Assembly: GCF_002854065.1 (NCBI RefSeq) | Contig: NZ_CP024147.1 | Reading direction: 5' to 3' (one strand) | DNA: 64,000 nucleotides | DNA from: Escherichia coli | GTDB lineage: Bacteria; Pseudomonadota; Gammaproteobacteria; Enterobacterales; Enterobacteriaceae | Shown: in pieces, positions 4,900-32,520 of the stretch | Layout: each line of letters starts with the position of its first letter | How positions within the stretch are numbered: the stretch's first letter is position 1 | Notes under the pieces: generated by a model | What the model was told of the DNA's origin: nothing | What the model saw: the letters and a program-made list of their open reading frames with translations, nothing else | The model's database searches: none | Position numbers and translations under genes: made by a program

Positions 4900-5931
4900 T
4901 CAACCGTCGATAAATACGTCCGCCAGGGGTTTATGGCACAACAGAAGAGATAACCCTTCCAGCTCTGCCCACACTGACTGACCGTAATCTTGTTTGAGGG
5001 TGAGTTCCGTTCGTGTCAGGAGTTGCACGGCCTGACGTAACTGCGGCTGACTTAAGCGATTTAACGCTTCGCCCATCATGCGCCGGCGGTTCTGCCATAC
5101 CCGATGCTTATCAAACAACGCACGCAGTGGCGTATGGGCAGACTGGCGTTTCAGGTTAACCAGTAACAACAGTTCACGTTGTAATGTGCGCAACAAAATA
5201 ACCGGCTCGCTGCCTTCCAGACGCAGTTGCTGAAGAATATGCAACGCGCGCTTACTTTTTCCCATCAACAAAGCATCAACCCAATGAAAAGGGGTGAAAT
5301 GCGCGGCATCATTCACCGCCTGTTCAACGCGCGGTAATGTCAGTTTGCCGTCTGGCCAGAGCAGCGATAAACGCTCCAGTGCCTGAGCCAGCGCCAGCAG
5401 GTTACCTTCATAACAGTAGCAGAGCACCTGATTTGCAGCGTCATCCAGTTCTAAGTTGAGCTGTTTTGCGCGCGCAGCAACCCAGCGGGGAAGCTGAGCC
5501 TGCTCCGGTGTCTGACAGGTCACCTGCACGCTGCGATTCGCAAGAGCAGTAAACCAGGCGGCATTTTCTTGCGCTTTGCTTAATTTATTACCGCGGACGA
5601 TCAACAGCAGGTCGTCATGCAGAAGTCCGGTGAGTGTGAGAAGTTGTTCATTGATCGCCGCATTCGGTCCGTTTTCTGGTAACAACAGCAATAGCGTTTG
5701 TCGACTGGCAAACAGACTCATAGCCTGGCATAACGAAAAGATCGCATTCCAGTCAGTGTTGGGATCAATGGAAAAAGTGTGGTGTTCTTCGAATCCTTGT
5801 GCCGCAGCTACCTGACGAACAGCGTCCTGGCTTTCCTGCAATAACAGAGGATCGTTACCAAGTAAAAGATACGCCGCGCGCAGCCCTTCATTGAGCTGCG
5901 CGCGGAGTTGTTCCGGGTACAACCGAATCAT
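4900..5931 (-). CDS. holA: DNA polymerase III delta subunit
   Basis: 343-aa ORF; conserved nadD-holA-lptE-leuS order; stop overlaps lptE start. Confidence 0.92.
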
Positions 5932-6526: not shown

Positions 6527-9109
6527 TTAGCCAACGACCAGATTGAGGAGTTTACCTGGTACGTAAATCACTTTACGTACAGTAACGCCATCAAGATATT
6601 TTGCTACCAGATGTTCCTGGCCAGCACGTTCGCGAACCTGTTCTTCCGTTGCGTCCACCGGAACGGTGATTTTGGCACGGACTTTACCGTTAACCTGCAC
6701 CACGACCAGCGTGGAGTCTTCCACCATCGCTTTTTCGTCAGCAACCGGCCACGGCGCGTTGTCGATATCGCCTTCGCCTTTCAGTTCCTGCCACAGCGTG
6801 AAGCAAATGTGCGGGGTGAACGGGTTAAGCATACGGACAACGGCCAGCAGTGCTTCCTGCATCAGAGCGCGATCCTGCTCGCCATCGGTCGGTGCTTTCG
6901 CCAGTTTGTTCATCAGCTCCATAATCGCCGCAATTGCGGTGTTGAAGGTCTGACGACGGCCGATATCATCGGTCACTTTAGCGATAGTTTTATGCACATC
7001 GCGACGCAGCGCTTTCTGATCTTCAGTCAGTGCATCAACGTTCAGTGCCGCAACATCACCTTTCGCAGTATGCTCGTACACCAGTTTCCAGACACGTTTC
7101 AGGAAGCGGTTAGCCCCTTCCACGCCGGACTCCTGCCATTCGAGAGTCATATCAGCCGGAGAAGCAAACATCATAAACAGACGAACGGTGTCCGCGCCGT
7201 AACGTTCAACCATCACCTGCGGGTCGATACCGTTGTTCTTCGACTTGGACATTTTGCTCATGCCGGTATAAACCAGTTCATGGCCTGCCGCATCTTTCGC
7301 TTTCACGATACGGCCTTTCTCGTCACGTTCAACGATAGCATCAACCGGGGAAACCCAGTTACGTTCGCCGTTTTCGCCAACATAGTAGAAGGCATCTGCC
7401 AGCACCATACCCTGACACAGCAACTGTTTCGCTGGTTCGTCAGAGTTCACCATGCCTGCATCACGCATCAGTTTGTGGAAGAAGCGGAAGTAGAGCAGGT
7501 GCATAATGGCGTGTTCGATACCACCAATGTAGATATCCACCGGCAGCCAGTAGTTAGCCGCTTCGGAATCCAGCATACCTTCTTTGTACTGCGGGCAAGT
7601 GTAGCGCGCATAGTACCAGGAGGACTCCATAAAGGTGTCGAAAGTGTCGGTTTCACGCAGTGCTGGCATACCGTTAACGGTAGTTTTCGCCCACTCCGGA
7701 TCTGCTTTAATCGGGCTGGTAATGCCGTCCATTACCACATCTTCCGGCAGGATCACCGGCAGCTGGTCGTCCGGGGTCGGCATTACGGTACCGTCTTCCA
7801 GCGTCACCATCGGAATCGGCGCGCCCCAGTAACGCTGACGGGAAACACCCCAGTCGCGCAGGCGGTAGTTCACTTTACGCTCGCCAACGCCCATCGCAGT
7901 CAGTTTATCGGCGATGGCGTTGAAGGCCGCTTCATGGTCAAGACCGTTGAACTCGCCAGAGTTGAACAGCACGCCTTTTTCAGTCAGGGCTTGCTGAGAA
8001 AGATCTGGCTCAGAGCCGTCAGCCGCCAGGATAACCGGTTTGATGTTCAGGCCGTATTTAGAGGCAAACTCGTAGTCGCGTTGGTCGTGCCCCGGAACCG
8101 CCATTACTGCGCCCGTGCCGTACTCCATCAATACGAAGTTTGCTGCCCAAACGGGAATTTCTTCGCCCGTTAATGGGTGAACAGCTTTAAAGCCAGTATT
8201 GACGCCTTTTTTCTCCATCGTCGCCATTTCAGCTTCAGCAACTTTGGTGTTACGGCATTCGTCAATAAAGGCCGCCAGTTCAGGATTATTTTCCGCCGCT
8301 TTCTGCGCCAGCGGATGACCCGCAGCTACCGCCAGGTAGGTACAACCCATAAAGGTGTCCGGGCGGGTAGTGTAAACGGTCAGCGTGTTGTCATAGTCGT
8401 TAACGTTGAAGGTGATTTCCACGCCTTCGGAACGACCGATCCAGTTACGCTGCATGGTTTTAACGGTGTCTGGCCAGTGATCCAGTTTATCCAAATCGTT
8501 GAGCAGCTCGTCAGCGTAAGCAGTGATTTTGATAAACCACTGCGGGATCTCTTTACGTTCAACTTTGGTATCGCAGCGCCAGCAGCAGCCGTCGATAACT
8601 TGTTCGTTCGCCAGTACGGTCTGGTCGTTCGGGCACCAGTTGACCGCAGAAGTCTTCTTATATACCAGGCCTTTTTTATACAGCTCGGTGAAGAATTTCT
8701 GTTCCCAACGGTAGTATTCCGGCGTACAGGTTGCCAGCTCGCGGCTCCAGTCATAACCAAAGCCCAGCATTTTGAGCTGGTTTTTCATATACGCGATGTT
8801 GTCGTACGTCCACGGTGCCGGAGCGGTGTTGTTTTTCACCGCCGCGCCTTCCGCAGGCAGACCAAACGCGTCCCAGCCGATCGGCTGCAGAACGTTTTTG
8901 CCCAGCATGCGCTGGTAACGGGCGATCACGTCACCGATGGTGTAGTTACGTACGTGGCCCATGTGTAGTCGACCAGAAGGATAGGGAAGCATAGACAGGC
9001 AGTAATACTTCTCTTTGCTCTCGTCTTCGGTTACTTCAAATGTGCGCTTCTCATCCCAATGAAGCTGTACTTTGGATTCTATCTCTTCCGGGCGGTATTG
9101 CTCTTGCAT
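6527..9109 (-). CDS. leuS: Leucyl-tRNA synthetase
   Basis: Class I aaRS signatures (HMGH motif, KMSKS-type MSKSK). Start set at MQEQYRPEE (860 aa); the ORF track extends 8 codons further upstream to 9133. Confidence 0.95.
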
Positions 9110-16049: not shown

Positions 16050-17720
16050 TTATGGGATCTCAATGGCTAAATAAACGCTCGCCCGCCGCCTGACCTCATC
16101 GACGCGGGCCATATCGTTTGACTGCAGCGCCGCATCAAAATCGGTGATCACCCGGCCAATCTCTTCTCGCTCGTCACCCAGCGCCCGCGCCCACAACTCT
16201 TCCAGTTTGGCTTTAAAGGTACGATTGATGAGCATATCGCGCGGATAAATTTTCAATGCGGATAACCGCGTCCGACTCTCTTCAATCTGCTGCGCGCTCA
16301 ATGTTACCGGGCTGTGGTTAATCACTCTGGACTTAACGCTGCCGTCTTCCAGAAGCACGTCAACTTCAAGCAAGCCGTTGATATCATAACTAAAGCGAAT
16401 ATCAATCGACTGATAAGCTCCGGTTTTCTTCAACGGCACATCGAAGGATTCCACCAGAATGTTATTTTTAACTTTGTGGTTTTCTCCCTGATAGACGTTA
16501 ACCGTAATAGAATCCTGTTCCGGGTGCATGGTCGAGTAAGTTTCTACACGCGACACCGGTACTGTGGTGTTTCGTTCAATAATCGGCGAGAAAATGCCGG
16601 AAACGCCCTGGCGGTTAACTTCAACGCCCAACGAGTAAGGGCAAATATCAGTGAGGATCACTTCTTCAATATCTTCACTGCGTAAGCGGCAGGCGGCCTG
16701 GATTGCTGCGCCCAGCGCGACAATGGTGCTCGGATCGTAACTTTGATACGGTAATTTGCCAAACAGACGCACGGCGATTCGCTGCACCAGCGGCATTTGT
16801 GACGCGCCGCCAACCAGCACCAGACTGTCGATCTGACTCGGCTTCAGACGCGCATCGCGCAATGCCTGTTCAATCGGCACTCGCAAGCGGTTAAGCAGAG
16901 GCAACCACAAATCTTCCAGTTCGTTCTCGTAAAATTCGCACTCCAGCGTTTCTTCCTGGTACTGCCAGCGAATGTGCATTGGCAATTGATTGCTACATTT
17001 TGCCGCTTCCACACAGGCGTACAGGGCAGCCAGTTCGCTCTCGTTAAGGGCTGTTTTGGCGACTTCCGCGCGTTTTAAAACTTCATCGACCAGCATATGA
17101 GTAAAATCTTCGCCACCGAGGAAGTTATCGCCCGCTGAGGCGTGAACTTCAATCACCGGCGTGGCGTACTCAAGCACCGTAACGTCAAACGTGCCGCCAC
17201 CGAGATCAAATACCAGCGAGCGGGTGTTTTGTTGGGTATGCAGGCCATACGCCATCGCAGCTGCCGTTGGCTCATTAATCAGGCGAACTGCATTTAAACC
17301 GGCTAACTCCGCTGCTAAACGGGTATGCTTGCGTTGTTCATCGCTGAAATAAGCCGGAACAGAGATCACCACATCTTTAATCGGACGTTGCAGAAATTCT
17401 TCGGCATCTTCTTTTAATGAACGTAATACCAAAGAGGACAGTTCTGGCGCGTTAAATGTGTCGCTGCCTAACCGCCAGTTGGTATTACTGCCCATTGCAC
17501 GTTTAAATAACGCTGCCGTTTTATCCGGATGCGAAGTACGCCGTGATACAGCCGGTTTTCCGACTAAAATATGATTATTTTCATCCATGCTAATTATGGA
17601 TGGTGTTAAATATTCACCGAACTTATTTGGAATTAATTGCGCGGCACCGTCTTTCCAGACGGCAATTAAACTATTGGTAGTACCGAGATCGATACCAATG
17701 GCGAGTTCTGCATTATCCAT
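16050..17720 (-). CDS. hscC: Hsp70-family chaperone HscC (Hsc62)
   Basis: 556-aa ORF with Hsp70 ATPase signatures (IGIDLGTTNS; DLGGGTFD). Confidence 0.92.
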   Translation of the reverse strand: MDNAELAIGIDLGTTNSLIAVWKDGAAQLIPNKFGEYLTPSIISMDENNHILVGKPAVSRRTSHPDKTAALFKRAMGSNTNWRLGSDTFNAPELSSLVLRSLKEDAEEFLQRPIKDVVISVPAYFSDEQRKHTRLAAELAGLNAVRLINEPTAAAMAYGLHTQQNTRSLVFDLGGGTFDVTVLEYATPVIEVHASAGDNFLGGEDFTHMLVDEVLKRAEVAKTALNESELAALYACVEAAKCSNQLPMHIRWQYQEETLECEFYENELEDLWLPLLNRLRVPIEQALRDARLKPSQIDSLVLVGGASQMPLVQRIAVRLFGKLPYQSYDPSTIVALGAAIQAACRLRSEDIEEVILTDICPYSLGVEVNRQGVSGIFSPIIERNTTVPVSRVETYSTMHPEQDSITVNVYQGENHKVKNNILVESFDVPLKKTGAYQSIDIRFSYDINGLLEVDVLLEDGSVKSRVINHSPVTLSAQQIEESRTRLSALKIYPRDMLINRTFKAKLEELWARALGDEREEIGRVITDFDAALQSNDMARVDEVRRRASVYLAIEIP

Positions 17721-17803
17721 TGCATTTATATCTTGAAAGAAAAAGAGATAAACAGATTAAGACCACCCAGGTAACGCGTGGTGATCTTAATCAATGACGT
17801 GTG

Positions 17804-18739
17804 TTAAGCGTAAAATTTCAGACGATCGGCCAGTAAATCAACAAAGCTCTGACGATCAACATCGACCATTACAGTGGCATTCGGTTTATTGCCAGTCAGA
17901 TAATAATAATCAACAACCGTCATCCCCTGGGTATATTTCCCCTGTGTTTCCACGCCAACCCAGCGCTCAACAGTGGTAAACAACTCGGGTTTCAACAGCC
18001 AGGCGATGGTGCATGGGTCATGCAGCGGTGCGCCGACAAAGCCCCATTTTTCGTCTTTATGATATTCGAGGAAGAAATCCAGCAGTTCGGCAACAATGGT
18101 TGAAACAGGGTTGCCAATCGCGCGGAAACGCTCGGTGTCCTCACCGTGAATTTGTGCTTTGTGAGTAACATCCAGACCGGCCATCACCACCGGGATCCCT
18201 GACTGGAAGACAATTTCTGCCGCTTCCGGGTCAACGTAAATATTAAATTCAGCCGCAGGCGTCCAGTTACCCAGCCCCATAGCGCCACCCATAATCACGA
18301 TACGGGCAATTTTGCTATGCAGTTCCGGATGGCTATTGAGCAGCAAGGCAACGTTAGTTTGCGGTCCGGTAGAAACAATGGTGACAGGTTCCGCACTTTC
18401 ACGCAGCGTTTTCGCCATTAGCTCTACCGCCGTACAGTTTTGCGGTGCGAACGCCGGTTCCGGTAATGCCGGGCCGTCGAGACCGCTTTCGCCGTGCACA
18501 TTGTCCGCGATAATCAACTCACGCATTAACGGTTTTACCGCGCCGCCTGCTACCGGAATATCGGTGCGATTAAGCAAGGTCAGCATACGCAGAACATTGC
18601 GTAAGGTTTTTTCTGGTGTCTGGTTTCCGGCGGAAGACGTAATTGCTTTGACATCAAGCTCTGGTGAGGCGAGGGCGAGAACTATTGCGATAGCGTCGTC
18701 ATGACCTGGGTCGCAATCTAACAGAATTGGCAGTGCCAT
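17804..18739 (-). CDS. rihA: Pyrimidine-specific ribonucleoside hydrolase
   Basis: Nucleoside hydrolase motif DCDPGHDD near the N-terminus; start set at [10 protein letters not shown] (311 aa); the ORF track extends 11 codons upstream. Confidence 0.9.
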
Positions 18740-18856
18740 TGTTGCTCCTTGTTGTGTGCTTCTTTGCGACAAGGGTAACGCCAGGATGTAACAGATACGA
18801 GGGGCGAAACGATAAAGCGTGAGATGGCGCGCAATTGGGTATGCGCGCCAGAGTGA

Positions 18857-19582
18857 TTAATGCAGGATTTTCGCGAGGAAGTCTTTTGCGCGGTCCGATT
18901 TCGGATCATCGAAGAACGCATCTTTCGGCGAGTCTTCAACAATTTTACCCTCATCCATAAAGATCACCCGATTCGCCACTTTACGGGCAAAGCCCATTTC
19001 GTGGGTCACCACCATCATGGTCATCCCCTCGTTCGCCAGTTCCACCATCACGTCCAGCACTTCGTTGATCATCTCCGGGTCTAGTGCCGATGTGGGTTCG
19101 TCGAACAGCATCGCAATAGGATCCATACACAATGCGCGAGCAATTGCCACACGCTGCTGCTGGCCGCCGGAAAGCTGCGCCGGAAATTTATTGGCATGTG
19201 CGGAAAGTCCCACGCGCTCCAGCAATTTCAATGCTTTTTCACGAGCCGGTGCTTTATCGCGTTTAAGCACTTTCACCTGCGCTAGGGTCAGGTTTTCGAT
19301 AATCGACAGATGAGGGAACAGCTCGAAATGTTGGAATACCATCCCGACGCGAGAACGCAGCTTTGCCAGATCGGTTTTCTTGTCGTTAACCACGATACCA
19401 TCGACGGTGATTTCACCTTGCTGCACTGGTTCGAGGCCGTTGACGGTTTTAATCAGCGTTGATTTGCCGGAACCAGACGGGCCGCAAACCACCACCACTT
19501 CGCCTTTTTTCACTTCGGTTGAGCAGTCGGTCAGCACCTGAAAGTGACCATACCATTTTGAAACATTTTTCAGGGTAATCAT
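18857..19582 (-). CDS. gltL: Glutamate/aspartate ABC transporter ATP-binding protein
   Basis: Walker A (GPSGSGKST), ABC signature (LSGGQQQR), Walker B ([10 protein letters not shown]). Confidence 0.93.
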
Positions 19583-20256
19583 TATGCTGTCCTTCTTTTC
19601 AAGTAGCTGACCAACAACGACGCGCTAAGGCTAATAACGAAATAAACAAATCCGGCAAACAGGATCATCTCAACCTGCGTACCATCACGCTCACCAATGG
19701 TTGAGGCGGTACGGAAGAAATCGGCCAGAGATAACACATACACCAGCGAGGTATCCTGGAACAGTACGATGCCCTGAGTGAGCAGCAGCGGCACCATCGC
19801 GCGGAACGCCTGCGGCAGAATAATCAGTTTCATCGACTGCCAGTGAGTCATTCCCAACGCCAGCGCGGCGCTAGACTGACCACGAGAAATACTTTGAATA
19901 CCAGCACGGATAATCTCTGAATAGTAGGCCGCTTCAAACATCGAAAACGCCACCATCGCCGAAATTAAACGGATATCATTTTTTGGCGATAATCCCAGCA
20001 CGTTTTGCAGAAAACCCGGCACGATCAGGTAAAACCACAGCAAAACCATAACTAAAGGAATCGAGCGGAATACGTTAACGTAGGCTTTGGCAAACCACGC
20101 TACGGGCGCAAAGCTGGACAAGCGCATCACCGCCAGCATGGTGCCCCACAAAATACCAATCACGACTGCCGTGACGGTGATTTTCAGCGTGATCACTAGC
20201 CCGTCGAGCAGATATGGCAGGGAAGGGACAATGGAACTCCAGTCAAACTCGTACAT
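19582..20256 (-). CDS. gltK: Glutamate/aspartate ABC transporter permease
   Basis: 224-aa polytopic membrane ORF, overlapping start/stop with gltL and gltJ. Confidence 0.9.
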
Positions 20257-20996
20257 TATTTGCCCCCCATGTTGCCAGGCAGGCGAACTTTACGTTCAAC
20301 CAGCGTCATCACCAGCATGATAACCGCGTTAATCAACACATACGCTAGCGTAATGGCGGTAAACGACTCCCAGGCGTGAGCCGAGTAGTCGAGCAATTTA
20401 CCCGCCTGCGCTGCCATATCTACCAGACCGATGGTCGAGGCGATGGCGGAGTTTTTCACCAGGTTCATCATCTCTGAGGTCATCGGCGGGACGATAACGC
20501 GATAAGCATTAGGCAGCAGTACGTAGCGGTAAGCCTGCGGCAGCGTCAGACCCATCGCCAGCGCGGCATTCTTCTGCCCGCGCGGCAGCGACTGAATCGC
20601 GGCGCGTACCTGTTCGCAAACGCGAGCCGCAGTAAACAGCCCCAGGCAGAGCATGGAGGAGAGGAAAAACTGAATATTTGGGTCCAGTTCCGCCTTAAAC
20701 CACATGCCGATTTTTTCCGGCAGCAGCTCCGGGATCACCAGATACCAGGTAAAGAACTGCACAATCAACGGCACGTTGCGGAACAGTTCGACATACAACG
20801 TACCCAGACCGGAGAGAAAACGGTTTGGAACGGTACGTAAAATGCCGAAAAATGAACCGACGAGGAAAGCGATAATCCAGGCGCAGATCGACAAAGCGAT
20901 CGTCACCTGAAAACCACTCCAGATCCAACCAAGATAGGTGGTGTTGCCGAACGGAGCTTGTTGTAAAAAAATACCCCAGTTCCAGTCTATAGACAT
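20256..20996 (-). CDS. gltJ: Glutamate/aspartate ABC transporter permease
   Basis: 246-aa polytopic membrane ORF in gltIJKL order. Confidence 0.9.
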
Positions 20997-21005
20997 AAAT
21001 CTACT

Positions 21006-21165
21006 CCAGAAAAAAGAGGGTAGCAGCGTTAACTGCTACCCTCGAAGATTGTTACCCAGCGTATTGCGGTTTTCAGGCCCGATGGGGAACGACCATCAGG
21101 CGTATAGTCTGTCCGTGCTACGTAACAATTGAGAGGGCTGGAATTTCCGCCCCTGGTTCTTGTAA
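21006..21165 (-). ncRNA. sroC: Probable SroC sRNA (gltI 3'UTR / gltI-gltJ spacer fragment), ending in an intrinsic terminator
   Basis: 169-bp non-coding spacer between gltI stop and gltJ start, where E. coli SroC is described; contains hairpin gagggtagcag-cgttaa-ctgctaccctc (21016-21043) followed on the minus strand by TTTTTTCT. Confidence 0.45.
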
Positions 21166-22074
21166 TTAGTTCAGTGCCTTGTCATTCGGTTCTTTGAACA
21201 GTGCTTTCATTTCGTCTGACAGTTCGAAATTCATGTTCAGGTTTTTCGGCGGAATTGGATTTTTGAACCATTTATCAAACCATTTTTCCGCTTCACCGGA
21301 GGTCTGCACCTGAGCGATGGTGTCATCCATCAGCTTTTTGAACTGCGGATCGTCTTTACGCAACATGCAACCGTAGGCTTCCTGAGACTGCGGCTTGCCG
21401 ACGATATCCCAGTTGTCTGGTTTCTTCGCTTTCGCACGTTCACCGGCCAGCAGGGCATCATCCATCATAAAGGCAACGGCACGACCGCTTTCCAGGGTGC
21501 GGAAAGAGTCACCGTGATCTTTGGCGCTGATGATGCGCATATTCATTTTTTGCTCTTCATTCAGTTTGTTGAGCAAAACTTCAGAGGTAGTGCCGGAAGT
21601 GACGACTACGGCTTTGCCTTTCAGGTCGGCAAAATCTTTGATATCGCCGCCCTTTTTGGTCAACAGGCGCGTACCGACCACGAAAATAGTGTCAGAGAAA
21701 GCCGCCTGTTTTTGGCGTTCGACGTTGTTGGTGGTAGAACCACATTCAAAATCGAAAGTGCCGTTTTGCAGAAGAGGAATACGGTTTTGTGAGGTGATCG
21801 GAATCAGTTTCACCTGCAAGTCCGGTTTGTTGAGTTTCTTTTTCACTGCTTCAACAATGGCGTTGGAGTAATCCTGCGAATAACCCACCACTTTTTGCTG
21901 ATTGTCGTAATAAGAGAAAGGTACTGAAGATTCACGGTGACCGACGACAATCACGCCGTTTTTGGCGATTTTGTCCAGCGTACTGCCCGCTGCCGGGGCG
22001 GCGTCATCTGCCTGTGCCAGTCCTGCGGAAAGCGCAAGGGCCAGGATTGCTGTGGCAGGTTTACGTAATTGCAT
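21166..22074 (-). CDS. gltI: Glutamate/aspartate periplasmic binding protein
   Basis: Start set at MQLRKPATAILALALSAGLAQA (signal peptide; 302 aa); the ORF track extends 25 codons upstream. Confidence 0.9.
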   Translation of the reverse strand: MQLRKPATAILALALSAGLAQADDAAPAAGSTLDKIAKNGVIVVGHRESSVPFSYYDNQQKVVGYSQDYSNAIVEAVKKKLNKPDLQVKLIPITSQNRIPLLQNGTFDFECGSTTNNVERQKQAAFSDTIFVVGTRLLTKKGGDIKDFADLKGKAVVVTSGTTSEVLLNKLNEEQKMNMRIISAKDHGDSFRTLESGRAVAFMMDDALLAGERAKAKKPDNWDIVGKPQSQEAYGCMLRKDDPQFKKLMDDTIAQVQTSGEAEKWFDKWFKNPIPPKNLNMNFELSDEMKALFKEPNDKALN

Positions 22075-22392
22075 ATCCAACTCCTTTATCTTCTGCGTTA
22101 AGAACGCATGGATACCCGTTGTGAGTGTTTGTGTTGTTATCGTCTGCAACTTTATTGTGCAGTGTTGTGACTGTTAGGTAACATTTAGTTTGGGTAAATG
22201 TAAAGATATTGATGTTTTATTGTTTGTTTTTGCGAGGTGCACCGCACCATTCCGAAGCAAAATTCTTAAAATGCACTCTTTTGGTGCTACCGGTGGATTG
22301 CTGTGGTGCAACCGGGTTGTACTGATGCTGGTTAAAGCTTTGCCTGGTATAACAAAGCAATAGATGTGCCAAAGTTGGATAGGAGAATATTG

Positions 22393-22434
22393 TTATCCGG
22401 ATAATGCACTGATGCCGCATCCGGTGAGCGTGCC
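22393..22434. repeat. REP-like palindromic element between lnt and gltI
   Basis: tccggataa ... gatgccgcatccggtg resembles REP consensus. Confidence 0.4.
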
Positions 22435-22470
22435 GAAATATGGGATGTATTCCGGCACGATAAGAAGGGA

Positions 22471-24009
22471 TTATTTACGTCGCTGACGCAGACTCATCAA
22501 CACAGCAGCAAAACCAAACAGTGCCGTCAGCACCCACAGCGGCCAGTTGCCGGTACGTGCGTATGGTGTGAGTCCGGTGGTCGGCGTCACGTTAGTGGTT
22601 AACACCTCGCGGGTGAATTGCGGGATCATCGCCTGAATCTCACCCTGCGGGCCAATCACCGCCGTAATGCCGTTGTTGGTGCTGCGCAACAGTGGGCGCG
22701 CCAGCTCCAGCGCACGCATTCGCGCCATCTGGAAGTGCTGCCATGGACCAATAGACTTACCAAACCACGCATCGTTGGAGATAGTCAGCAGATAGTCGGT
22801 ATCCGGGCGGAAGTTATCGCGCACTTGCTCGCCGAGAATGATCTCGTAGCAAATAGCCGCAGTAAGCTCAATACCATTTGCCGACAGCGGCGGCTGGATA
22901 TATGGCCCACGGCTGAACGACGACATCGGCAGATCAAAGAACGGTGCTAACGGACGCAGAATCGACTCCAGCGGGACAAACTCGCCAAACGGCACCAGAT
23001 GGTTTTTGTTATAACGATCGGCTGATTCGTAGCTGTACGGTGCACCTTTACCCAGCGTGATGATGGTGTTGTAGGTATCGTAACGGTTCTGCTTATTAAG
23101 ACGCGCGTCAACAATCCCGGTCACCAGCGTACTCCCTTTATCACGCAACTCACCGTCCAGTGCTTTGAGGAACGGTTGCTGATTAATTTCCAGATCGGTT
23201 ATCGCCGACTCCGGCCAGATAATCAACGATGATTTGCCCATCAGTGGTGCCGTTGCGTTGTAGTAAATCTTCAGCGTATTAAGAAGCTGGCCTTCGTCCC
23301 ATTTCAGCGATTGCGGAATATCGCCCTGAACCATCGAAACCTGAATGGTTTTCTCCGGTTGTGGGGTAAACCACTGGATGTAACGCAGCGGGAAGGGAAG
23401 GGCAAACAGCACGACGGCCACCACCAGCGGACGCCAGTTGCGTTTGACTAACGCCAGTGCCAGCAGGCCGCTAACCATCATCAGCAGGAAGTTAATGGCT
23501 TCCACGCCCATTAGCGGTGCCAGCCCTTTTAACGGGCCATCAATCTGGCTATAGCCGAACTGTAACCACGGGAAGCCTGTCAGTACCCAACCGCGCAGAA
23601 ACTCGGTCACTTGCCAGAGAGCAGGGGCGGCAATCGCCACGCGCAGCCAGGTGGTTTTCGGCCACAGGCGCGACAGCACGCCAGCAAACAGTCCGGTATA
23701 CAGCGACAAATACGCTGCCAGCAGCACCACCAGGAAGATGTTAACCGGGCCAGGCATTCCGCCAAAGGTCGCGATGCTGACATAGACCCAGTTAATACCG
23801 CTGCCAAAGAGGCCAAATCCCCAGCAAAAGCCAATAGCGGCAGACTGGAGTGGACGGCGGTTAAAGGTCAACGCCTGAAGCCCCATCAGCGAAATAATCG
23901 CCGCAGGCCAGACGTCGTAAGGAGAGAAGGCCAGCGTTCCGCAGGCACCGCATAATAACGCCAGCAGCAGGCGAATGCGCTGGCGTTCAATTAATGAGGC
24001 AAAAGCCAT
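22471..24009 (-). CDS. lnt: Apolipoprotein N-acyltransferase
   Basis: 512-aa ORF: N-terminal polytopic membrane region plus C-terminal nitrilase-like domain; conserved ybeZ-ybeY-corC-lnt order. Confidence 0.93.
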
Positions 24010-24033
24010 GTAGTTATCTATCCAGTTTCGGTT

Positions 24034-24912
24034 TTATTCATCCAGCTTTGGCTGGGGTGAGTCATCCGGGATTTTGACATGAACCTGAATAATACGCCGA
24101 CTATCGGCCATCGCCACTTTGAACTGGTAACCGTCGATGTCGATGGTTTCGCCACGCGCCGGAAGATGCCCAAATGCCTGCATCACCAGACCACCGATAG
24201 TGTCGACTTCTTCATCGCTAAAGTGGGTGCCGAACGCTTCGTTGAAGTCTTCAATGGAAGCCAGCGCGCGCACGGTCCAGGTATGACGACTCAGCTGACG
24301 GAAGTCGATATCATCTTCTTCGTCATATTCGTCTTCAATCTCACCAACAATCAGTTCCAGGATGTCTTCAATGGTCACCAGACCGGAAACCCCACCGAAT
24401 TCGTCAATGACGATCGCCATGTGGTAACGCTGAGAGCGAAACTCTTTCAGCATCCGGTCTACGCGCTTACTTTCAGGAACGACAACCGCCTGACGTAACA
24501 CTTTGTCCATGCTGAAGGCTTCAGCATCGCTGCGCATAAACGGCAGCAAGTCTTTCGCCATCAGAATCCCTTCAATGTGATCTTTGTCTTCGCTAATCAC
24601 CGGGAAACGTGAGTGGGCGGACTCGATGATGACATCAAGGCATTCGTCCAGCGTCTGGTTGCGTTTCAGGGTAATCATCTGGGAGCGAGGGATCATGATG
24701 TCGCGGACGCGTTGGTCTGCGATGTCCATCACCCCTTCGAGCATATCGCGCGTATCTTCGTCGATAAGGTCGTTCTGCCCGGAATCACGGATCAGCGCCA
24801 GCAGTTCGTCACGGTTTTTCGGTTCACCGTGGAAAAGTTGGCTGAGTAACAGGGAGAAAAATCCCTTCTTGTTGCTTATCGTGTCACTACTGTGTGAATT
24901 GTCGTCGCTCAT
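24034..24912 (-). CDS. corC: CBS-pair / CorC-HlyC magnesium-cobalt efflux accessory protein
   Basis: 292-aa ORF, conserved position downstream of ybeY. Confidence 0.9.
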
Positions 24913-25001
24913 GGCGTCGTATGGGTTCTCATGTTAGTTAATCAAAACGCCGTCGTTAATCACCAACGGCGGGGACGTCTGCCAGTCAAATGCCTGGCAA
25001 A

Positions 25002-29557: not shown

Positions 29558-29632
29558 TGGCTGGGGTACGAGGATTCGAACCTCGGAATGCCGGAATCAG
29601 AATCCGGTGCCTTACCGCTTGGCGATACCCCA
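29558..29632 (-). tRNA. glnX: tRNA-Gln (anticodon CUG)
   Basis: 75-nt reverse-strand cloverleaf sequence, anticodon loop UUCUGAUU, ends CCA. Confidence 0.95.
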
Positions 29633-29669
29633 ACTGGGTGCACTTACAAGGTAAGCGTCTTGAATAAAT

Positions 29670-29744
29670 TGGCTGGGGTACGAGGATTCGAACCTCGGAA
29701 TGCCGGAATCAGAATCCGGTGCCTTACCGCTTGGCGATACCCCA
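29670..29744 (-). tRNA. glnV: tRNA-Gln (anticodon CUG)
   Basis: Exact repeat of the glnX sequence. Confidence 0.95.
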
Positions 29745-29791
29745 ACAAATTGGTTTTGAATTTGCCGAACATATTCGACACATTCAGAATT

Positions 29792-29868
29792 TGGTGGCTA
29801 CGACGGGATTCGAACCTGTGACCCCATCATTATGAGTGATGTGCTCTAACCAACTGAGCTACGTAGCC
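29792..29868 (-). tRNA. metU: tRNA-Met elongator (anticodon CAU)
   Basis: 77-nt sequence whose reverse complement reads GGCUACGUAGCUCAGUUGGUUAGAGCACAUCACUCAUAAUGAUGGGGUCACAGGUUCGAAUCCCGUCGUAGCCACCA. Confidence 0.95.
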
Positions 29869-29883
29869 AGATTGTTTCTTCGA

Positions 29884-29958
29884 TGGCTGGGGTACCTGGA
29901 TTCGAACCAGGGAATGCCGGTATCAAAAACCGGTGCCTTACCGCTTGGCGATACCCCA
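29884..29958 (-). tRNA. glnW: tRNA-Gln (anticodon UUG)
   Basis: 75-nt Gln tRNA with anticodon loop UUUUGAU; same acceptor stem as glnX/glnV. Confidence 0.95.
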
Positions 29959-29992
29959 ATAACCGGGCGGTGAACCGCTTACTCGAAGAAGA

Positions 29993-30067
29993 TGGCTGGG
30001 GTACCTGGATTCGAACCAGGGAATGCCGGTATCAAAAACCGGTGCCTTACCGCTTGGCGATACCCCA
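29993..30067 (-). tRNA. glnU: tRNA-Gln (anticodon UUG)
   Basis: Repeat of the glnW sequence. Confidence 0.95.
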
Positions 30068-30090
30068 TCCGTACAACGCTTTCTGGTGAA

Positions 30091-30175
30091 TGGTGCGGGA
30101 GGCGAGACTTGAACTCGCACACCTTGCGGCGCCAGAACCTAAATCTGGTGCGTCTACCAATTTCGCCACTCCCGC
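30091..30175 (-). tRNA. leuW: tRNA-Leu (anticodon UAG), class II tRNA with long variable arm
   Basis: 85-nt sequence; reverse complement starts GCGGGAGUGGCGAAAUUGG and ends ...CCCGCACCA. Confidence 0.93.
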
Positions 30176-30183
30176 AAAAAAGA

Positions 30184-30260
30184 TGGTGGCTACGACGGGA
30201 TTCGAACCTGTGACCCCATCATTATGAGTGATGTGCTCTAACCAACTGAGCTACGTAGCC
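30184..30260 (-). tRNA. metT: tRNA-Met elongator (anticodon CAU)
   Basis: Identical to the metU sequence; first gene of the operon. Confidence 0.95.
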
Positions 30261-32304: not shown

Positions 32305-32520
32305 AACCTTCTCCGTTAACCTGGTATTTGTTGCTTGTTGTGTTTGCTTGTTTAAAAAAATGCCGCAAAGCAGCACTGTGCGCAAGCGATTTGGCGGTGA
32401 AAAAATAAAAACGTAATGGTGATTGCTGATTTGTGAAAAAGGGGAGGGTGCGGTGATGTATTTATTGATGGATCGATAATTTTTGGCGAGTTTTATTGAA
32501 TGGTATGATTTTAATGATGG

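Follow-up and report, generated by a model that had tools for sequence, protein, structure and literature searches.

The spacer between gltI and gltJ in the window (the whole 64,000-nucleotide stretch of Escherichia coli DNA analysed here) carries sroC, which our sequence comparisons confirm as a well-characterised and already known small RNA (sRNA) locus of E. coli. With a probability of roughly 95%, sroC is processed from the gltI transcript and its product, SroC, acts as a sponge of the sRNA GcvB by the published mechanism. The identity of the locus follows from a full-length Rfam match, near-identity to K-12 sroC, and an identical geometry relative to the flanking genes. The features of the locus are compiled in Table 1.

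Rfam sroC (RF00369) is matched at 21170..21008 on the minus strand with 168.4 bits (gathering score 45, E = 2.6e-35). The match spans model positions 1-163 of 163, is thus not truncated, and represents the single non-tRNA Rfam match in the whole 64-kb window. Relative to curated K-12 sroC (b4763, annotated as ncRNA at NC_000913 686681-686843), 162 of 163 nucleotides are identical, and 200 of 201 if the flanks are included. In K-12 as in the window, sroC overlaps gltI by 5 nt and leaves an 11-nt gap to gltJ. The original prediction had linked the spacer to the SroC sponge and proposed an alignment with annotated sroC as a check. This alignment and the Rfam score of 168.4 bits bear it out, in agreement with the literature, according to which the spacer yields the SroC sponge via processing. 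The predicted coordinates hold for the intergenic spacer, while the RNA itself occupies 21170..21008, a trivial difference. Throughout, SroC nucleotide n corresponds to window position 21171 - n. For the 5′ end, two options exist, 21170 as in the E. coli annotation, or 21173, the Salmonella equivalent located 3 nt upstream. A 401-bp region containing sroC was found at 5,431 places in 5,421 of 5,426 complete E. coli genomes, with a median of 1 per genome. Among the E. coli records compared, sroC is named only in the curated K-12 entry and is missing from the PGAP annotation of NZ_CP182139.1, NZ_CM128593.1, and other listed records. Automatic RefSeq (PGAP) annotation thus misses sroC here and in nearly all other E. 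coli genomes.

Table 1. Position of sroC, its structural elements, and associated features. Positions refer to the window unless another locus is given.
Feature	Position	Strand	Basis or remark
sroC, 163-nt SroC sRNA	21008..21170	-	5′ end in last gltI codons, 3′ end after terminator U-run
Stem-loop 1, SroC nt 18-37	21134..21153	-	MFE fold; helix 1 84% paired in 65 species
G41A, SroC nt 41 = A	21130	-	G in K-12
Long interrupted stem, SroC nt 42-123	21048..21129	-	MFE fold; helices 2-5 66-98% paired
BS1 GGACAGAC, SroC nt 57-64	21107..21114	-	Perfect complement of GcvB nt 156-163 (R3/SL4)
Stem-loop 2, SroC nt 70-94	21077..21101	-	9-bp stem, 7-nt loop
BS2 UCGUUCC, SroC nt 79-85	21086..21092	-	Perfect complement of GcvB nt 13-19 (SL1)
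Rho-independent terminator	21010..21043	-	Stem 21043..21016, U6 21015..21010; terminator scan
C/A-rich element AACAACACAAACACUCACAAC, gltI 5′ UTR, GcvB R1 target	22118..22138	-	Sequence; described in PMC4474525
gltI	21166..22074	-	NCBIfam NF008063, 667.6 bits; annotated gltI in CUWW06 and K-12
gltJ CDS	20256-20996	-	Annotation of near-identical genome CUWW06
gltJ, gltK, gltL (permeases and ATPase)	18857..20996	-	GltK equivalog, 479 bits
Interrupted sroC, Yokenella regensburgei	L068:4100-4330	-	ERIC/IRU-like repeat after stem-loop 2
Interrupted sroC, Enterobacteriaceae bacterium RIT691	L014:~6860-6940	+	ERIC/IRU-like repeat after stem-loop 2

On the minus strand, the genes around sroC are arranged in the order hscC, rihA, gltL, gltK, gltJ, gltI (ybeJ), lnt, corC. 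The gltI stop codon (TAA) is located at 21168-21166 and the gltJ start codon (ATG) at 20996-20994. The unusually long non-coding spacer that had been predicted between both genes covers exactly 20997-21165 (169 bp). It is exceptional within the operon, because the remaining junctions, gltJ/gltK at 20256 and gltK/gltL at 19582, are overlaps of one base each. The gltJ Shine-Dalgarno sequence GGAG (21007..21004) lies in the 11 nt between the SroC 3′ end and the ATG. Based on the literature, we infer for this copy that gltJKL are expressed only through read-through of the sroC terminator.

E. coli CUWW06 and strain 100416 match the wider neighbourhood (17000-25000) with ~100% identity. Compared to CUWW06, the window shows two mismatches (8002 and 22194) before the register is lost at 32412, between asnB and nagD, indicating an indel relative to this genome. 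IS5D, which sits in the lnt-gltI intergenic region of K-12 MG1655, is absent from the window (22075-22470) and from its nearest relatives, and a REP-like palindrome, CACCGGATGCGGCATCAGTGCATTATCCGGATAAC, is located just after lnt at ~22427-22393 (-). Further away, the ubiF-asnB interval contains seven tRNA genes (Gln, Gln, Met, Gln, Gln, Leu, Met; 29558-30260, minus strand), an arrangement that is usual for E. coli.

The RNA encoded by the spacer is highly structured, as had been proposed. The segment 21170..20997 folds with a minimum free energy (MFE) of -65.8 kcal/mol, compared to -44.1 +/- 3.7 kcal/mol for 200 dinucleotide shuffles, none of which folds as well (z = -5.8). In the MFE fold, CUCA at nt 38-41 is single-stranded and separates stem-loop 1 from the long interrupted stem, which ends in stem-loop 2 and holds BS1, one of the two GcvB-pairing sites, in an internal-bulge region. 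The terminator reads GAGGGUAGCAGU-UAAC-GCUGCUACCCUC followed by UUUUUU on the coding strand. It thereby forms a 12-bp stem with seven G-C pairs and a 4-nt loop (SroC nt 128-155), corresponding to the strong hairpin and U-run expected at this end of the spacer, and represents the strongest terminator-like site in a 2.1-kb scan (9 sites versus 2.6 expected). By analogy with other Hfq-bound sRNAs, the terminator likely also supplies the Hfq-binding tail of SroC. A consensus scan, which constitutes weak evidence, detected no sigma-70-like promoter on the minus strand of 20500-22600, including the interior of gltI. That no such site is found inside gltI fits an origin of SroC by processing.

To compare the locus across species, we scanned 100,044 species genomes with the DNA pattern CACGGACNNACTATA-N5-12-GGTCGTTCC, which requires both BS1 and BS2. 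The scan returned 67 loci, all in Enterobacteriaceae (Escherichia, Salmonella, Citrobacter, Klebsiella, Raoultella, Enterobacter, Kluyvera, Kosakonia, Phytobacter, Yokenella, and others). Sequences of 64 distinct Enterobacteriaceae species were aligned with the window; being selected by the pattern, they are no independent test of BS1 and BS2 conservation, which we take from published work (PMC4474525). RNAalifold applied to the raw MAFFT alignment missed stem-loop 1 because of indels, and the MFE structure of the window was mapped onto the alignment instead. In this mapped structure, 89.7% of cells are paired, compared to 35-51% in controls with the partners shifted by 1-3 columns (slid controls). 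The covariation score amounts to 0.209 versus at most 0.073 in the slid controls, and 0 of 500 shuffles reached the observed value.

Changes on both sides of a pair occur at 17 of 47 pairs of the mapped structure. Stem-loop 2 is best supported, with 97.3% of cells paired and compensatory changes at six of its nine pairs across the 65 species; one of these pairs occurs as AU in 29, GC in 24, and CG in 9 cases. Compensatory changes are also found at eight pairs in helices 2-5 of the long stem, and helix 1 of stem-loop 1 has changed on both sides at two pairs. Helix 7 of the terminator is 97.7% paired across species, and 63 of 65 species rows retain the stem. None of the pairs with compensatory changes involves a base that the search pattern prescribes. 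Taken together, the alignment of the 64 other species supports a conserved SroC fold.

Between genera, the terminator differs in length. In Escherichia and Kluyvera, an insertion (alignment columns 159-170) lengthens its stem to ~12 bp, in contrast to 6-7 bp (GGGTAGCGCTGCTACCC) in Salmonella, Citrobacter, Klebsiella, Enterobacter, and Kosakonia. Terminator leakiness may thus differ between genera. In two species, Yokenella regensburgei and Enterobacteriaceae bacterium RIT691, an ERIC/IRU-like repeat (…AGTGAATCCCCGGGAGCCTACTCAAGTAAGCGACTGGGGTGAACGAGG…) interrupts sroC after stem-loop 2. The usual terminator, CTTCGAGGGTAGCTCTGCTACCCTTT, follows ~170 nt further on in Yokenella, and the Rfam score of the interrupted copies drops to 64-68 bits.

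Both GcvB-pairing sites were identified by exact-complement and short-window searches against K-12 GcvB. BS1 (8 nt) and BS2 (7 nt) are 14 nt apart, a spacing identical to the published one, and BS2 coincides exactly with the apical loop (7 nt) of stem-loop 2. In agreement with BS2 as a loop, structure probing places G84 at the tip of SL2 (PMC4474525). Within BS1, C60 of SroC pairs with G160 of GcvB, and within BS2, C84 pairs with G14. These pairs correspond to C63/G160 and C87/G14 in Salmonella, where the numbering is that of E. coli plus 3, and the compensatory Salmonella mutants C63G/G160C and C87G/G14C validate BS1 and BS2, respectively (PMC4474525). Complementarity to GcvB over 7-8 nt is not rare by chance, as at least two 8-mers with complementarity to GcvB occur in 11.5% of shuffled SroC sequences, and the weight of BS1 and BS2 therefore rests on their coincidence with the validated sites. 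Two further matches, SroC 101-108 with GcvB 189-196 and SroC 146-152 with GcvB 114-120, fall into the terminator or a stem and were put down to chance. Likewise, the end-to-end RNAduplex energy of SroC and GcvB (-78.8 kcal/mol) is meaningless, since it ignores intramolecular folding.

Of 5,426 complete E. coli genomes, 5,425 contain the partner gene gcvB, and 5,389 have it with at least 99% identity. Moreover, the gltI 5′ UTR itself carries the C/A-rich element targeted by R1 of GcvB, and its duplex with GcvB nt 56-95 reaches -43.0 kcal/mol compared to -27.7 +/- 3.4 kcal/mol for shuffles. With this target retained, the published feed-forward loop is, as judged from the sequence, structurally complete here. 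Further SroC targets are reported in PMC9438474, namely MgrR, which is sponged, and fliE/flhBAE, which are repressed. For MgrR, a simple prediction yields only an imperfect duplex between SroC 66-88 and MgrR 17-38 (-15.9 kcal/mol).

Compared with the published SroC (Miyakoshi, Chao & Vogel 2015, PMC4474525), the copy in the window thus has the same locus, coding strand, terminator, and fold, and the two GcvB-pairing sites and their 14-nt spacing are alike. For its 5′ end, RNase E dependence, and Hfq binding, we infer by analogy that the properties of the K-12 and Salmonella RNAs carry over. Transcription from the single gltI promoter would partly halt at the leaky terminator (21043-21010), giving rise to a monocistronic gltI mRNA, and the remaining transcription would pass into gltJKL. 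In published work, transcripts from the single gltIJKL promoter either span the whole operon or stop, as monocistronic gltI mRNA, at this leaky terminator, and RNase E, acting in a 5′-P-dependent and Hfq-guided manner, trims the terminated mRNA to SroC (PMC4474525). Trimming of this kind, dependent on the 5′ end and guided by Hfq, would here produce a stable, tightly folded RNA of ~163 nt with a 5′ monophosphate.

Together with Hfq, SroC would pair with GcvB twice, via BS1 with R3/SL4 and via the BS2 loop with SL1. This pairing would turn GcvB into a substrate of RNase E, while SroC would survive and thus act catalytically. Depletion of GcvB by SroC has been found to need Hfq; decay of GcvB depends on RNase E without co-degradation of SroC, and sroC deletion extends the GcvB half-life from 1.7 to >15 min (PMC4474525). 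In E. coli, the half-life of GcvB is ~3.8 min with SroC versus >16 min without it, and that of SroC exceeds 16 min whatever its 5′ phosphorylation state (PMC10250213). SroC is the partner in up to ~70% of the GcvB chimeras recovered by RIL-seq in stationary phase (PMC9299463). Loss of GcvB would consequently de-repress many amino-acid and peptide transporter mRNAs, among them gltI itself via the R1 target in its 5′ UTR, thereby forming a feed-forward loop.

SroC shares a parental mRNA terminator, a 5′ monophosphate generated by RNase E, and Hfq dependence with the 3′-UTR-derived sRNAs CpxQ, SdhX, NarS, MalH, and OppZ. These sRNAs originate from operon ends, whereas SroC arises inside an operon via a leaky terminator. 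Further, their targets are mRNAs, while the main target of SroC is another sRNA. In this respect, SroC resembles the chbBC spacer acting on ChiX, 3′ETS-leuZ acting on RyhB and RybB, and AgvB acting on GcvB, which likewise are RNA by-products that reduce the activity of an Hfq sRNA by pairing with it. SroC directs GcvB to RNase E decay via two separate sites and is not consumed. In contrast, AgvB sequesters GcvB at R1 without destabilising it, and the chbBC spacer opens ChiX to decay by another route.

The single difference from K-12 SroC is G41A at 21130. Counted by a 55-mer centred on nt 41, in which any 28-nt megablast word must include this base, the A allele occurs in three complete E. coli genomes (CUWW06, 100416, and GF4-3), and 5,418 genomes carry G. 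Together, both alleles account for all 5,421 genomes, of 5,426 complete ones, that have the locus. In all 64 other Enterobacteriaceae species representatives, nt 41 is G. In the MFE fold, the long stem is closed by pairing of G41 with C124; loss of this pair through the exchange costs 3.6 kcal/mol, with SroC MFE values of -62.7 kcal/mol for A and -66.3 kcal/mol for G. In the Rfam consensus, G41 pairs with C127 instead, as part of a UCUCG/CGAGG helix, which shares nucleotides with the terminator base. Because G41A is located outside BS1 and BS2, A41 SroC is expected to keep its sponge function.

In addition to encoding SroC, the spacer might hold a switch that conditions termination. Conserved nucleotides outside the GcvB contacts have been noted before, and regulated termination has been raised as a possibility (PMC4474525, Miyakoshi et al.). 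A conditional switch of this type would involve the invariant block CCCUCUCGAUUG (nt 34-45), whose UCUCG (nt 37-41) would pair with CGAGG (nt 127-131), occupy the base of the terminator stem, and thereby favour read-through into gltJKL. G41A would weaken this helix and also the base pair at which the long stem closes, and would shift the ratio of SroC to gltJKL output. The UCUCG/CGAGG helix is formable in 95.1% of species cells, a value reached by 209-234 of 500 shuffles, and no covariation beyond shuffles was detected for it in the 65-species alignment. That the spacer also holds a termination switch on which G41A acts is therefore doubtful, and we regard it as improbable.

Even less probable is that the spacer works in cis only. 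It would then serve as an attenuator within the operon and as a 3′ stabiliser, thereby keeping the ratio of GltI to GltJKL high, as in other ABC operons that begin with the binding protein, and the released fragment would be inert here, e.g., due to G41A. The terminator indeed directly precedes the gltJ Shine-Dalgarno sequence, its leakiness generates the monocistronic gltI mRNA needed for an excess of binding protein (PMC4474525), and G41A alters an invariant base. A role in trans is compatible with such a role in cis, however, and both GcvB sites are intact in the window, with G41A outside of either. Moreover, activity in trans was demonstrated in Salmonella by deletion, point-mutant, and compensatory experiments (PMC4474525) and in E. 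coli by plasmid and strain experiments (PMC9299463, PMC10250213). A terminator alone would also leave the invariance of BS1 and BS2 unexplained, although the species set was selected on both sites. These observations strongly favour the GcvB sponge over an inert by-product.

Two further readings can be dismissed almost entirely. A mechanically listed plus-strand ORF at 20938..21132 (64 codons, GTG start) might encode a small protein on the opposite strand, but related species differ by indels whose lengths are not divisible by three (e.g., an insertion of 1 nt at column 60 and a gap of 7 nt at columns 116-122), substitutions are compensatory pairs in RNA stems rather than wobble-position changes, the frame overlaps the gltJ start in antisense, and the Rfam structural model accounts for the region fully. 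Just as implausible is a dispersed repetitive extragenic element (REP/BIME or ERIC); although such elements are frequent between ABC-transporter genes, and ERIC-like DNA has inserted into sroC of the two other species mentioned above, the sroC region is single per genome, the 64-kb window contains only one Rfam sroC match, and the spacer lacks a REP or ERIC consensus.

Apart from the rare single-nucleotide variant, sroC at this locus holds no new biology. G41A represents a natural mutant for asking what role the conserved non-pairing nucleotides of SroC play, and likewise a natural probe of the regulated-termination idea. The GcvB regulon comprises roughly 1% of E. coli genes, most of which serve the uptake and metabolism of amino acids and peptides. 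As a textbook case of a sponge derived from an mRNA, SroC ties the expression of the Glu/Asp transporter to this whole regulon.
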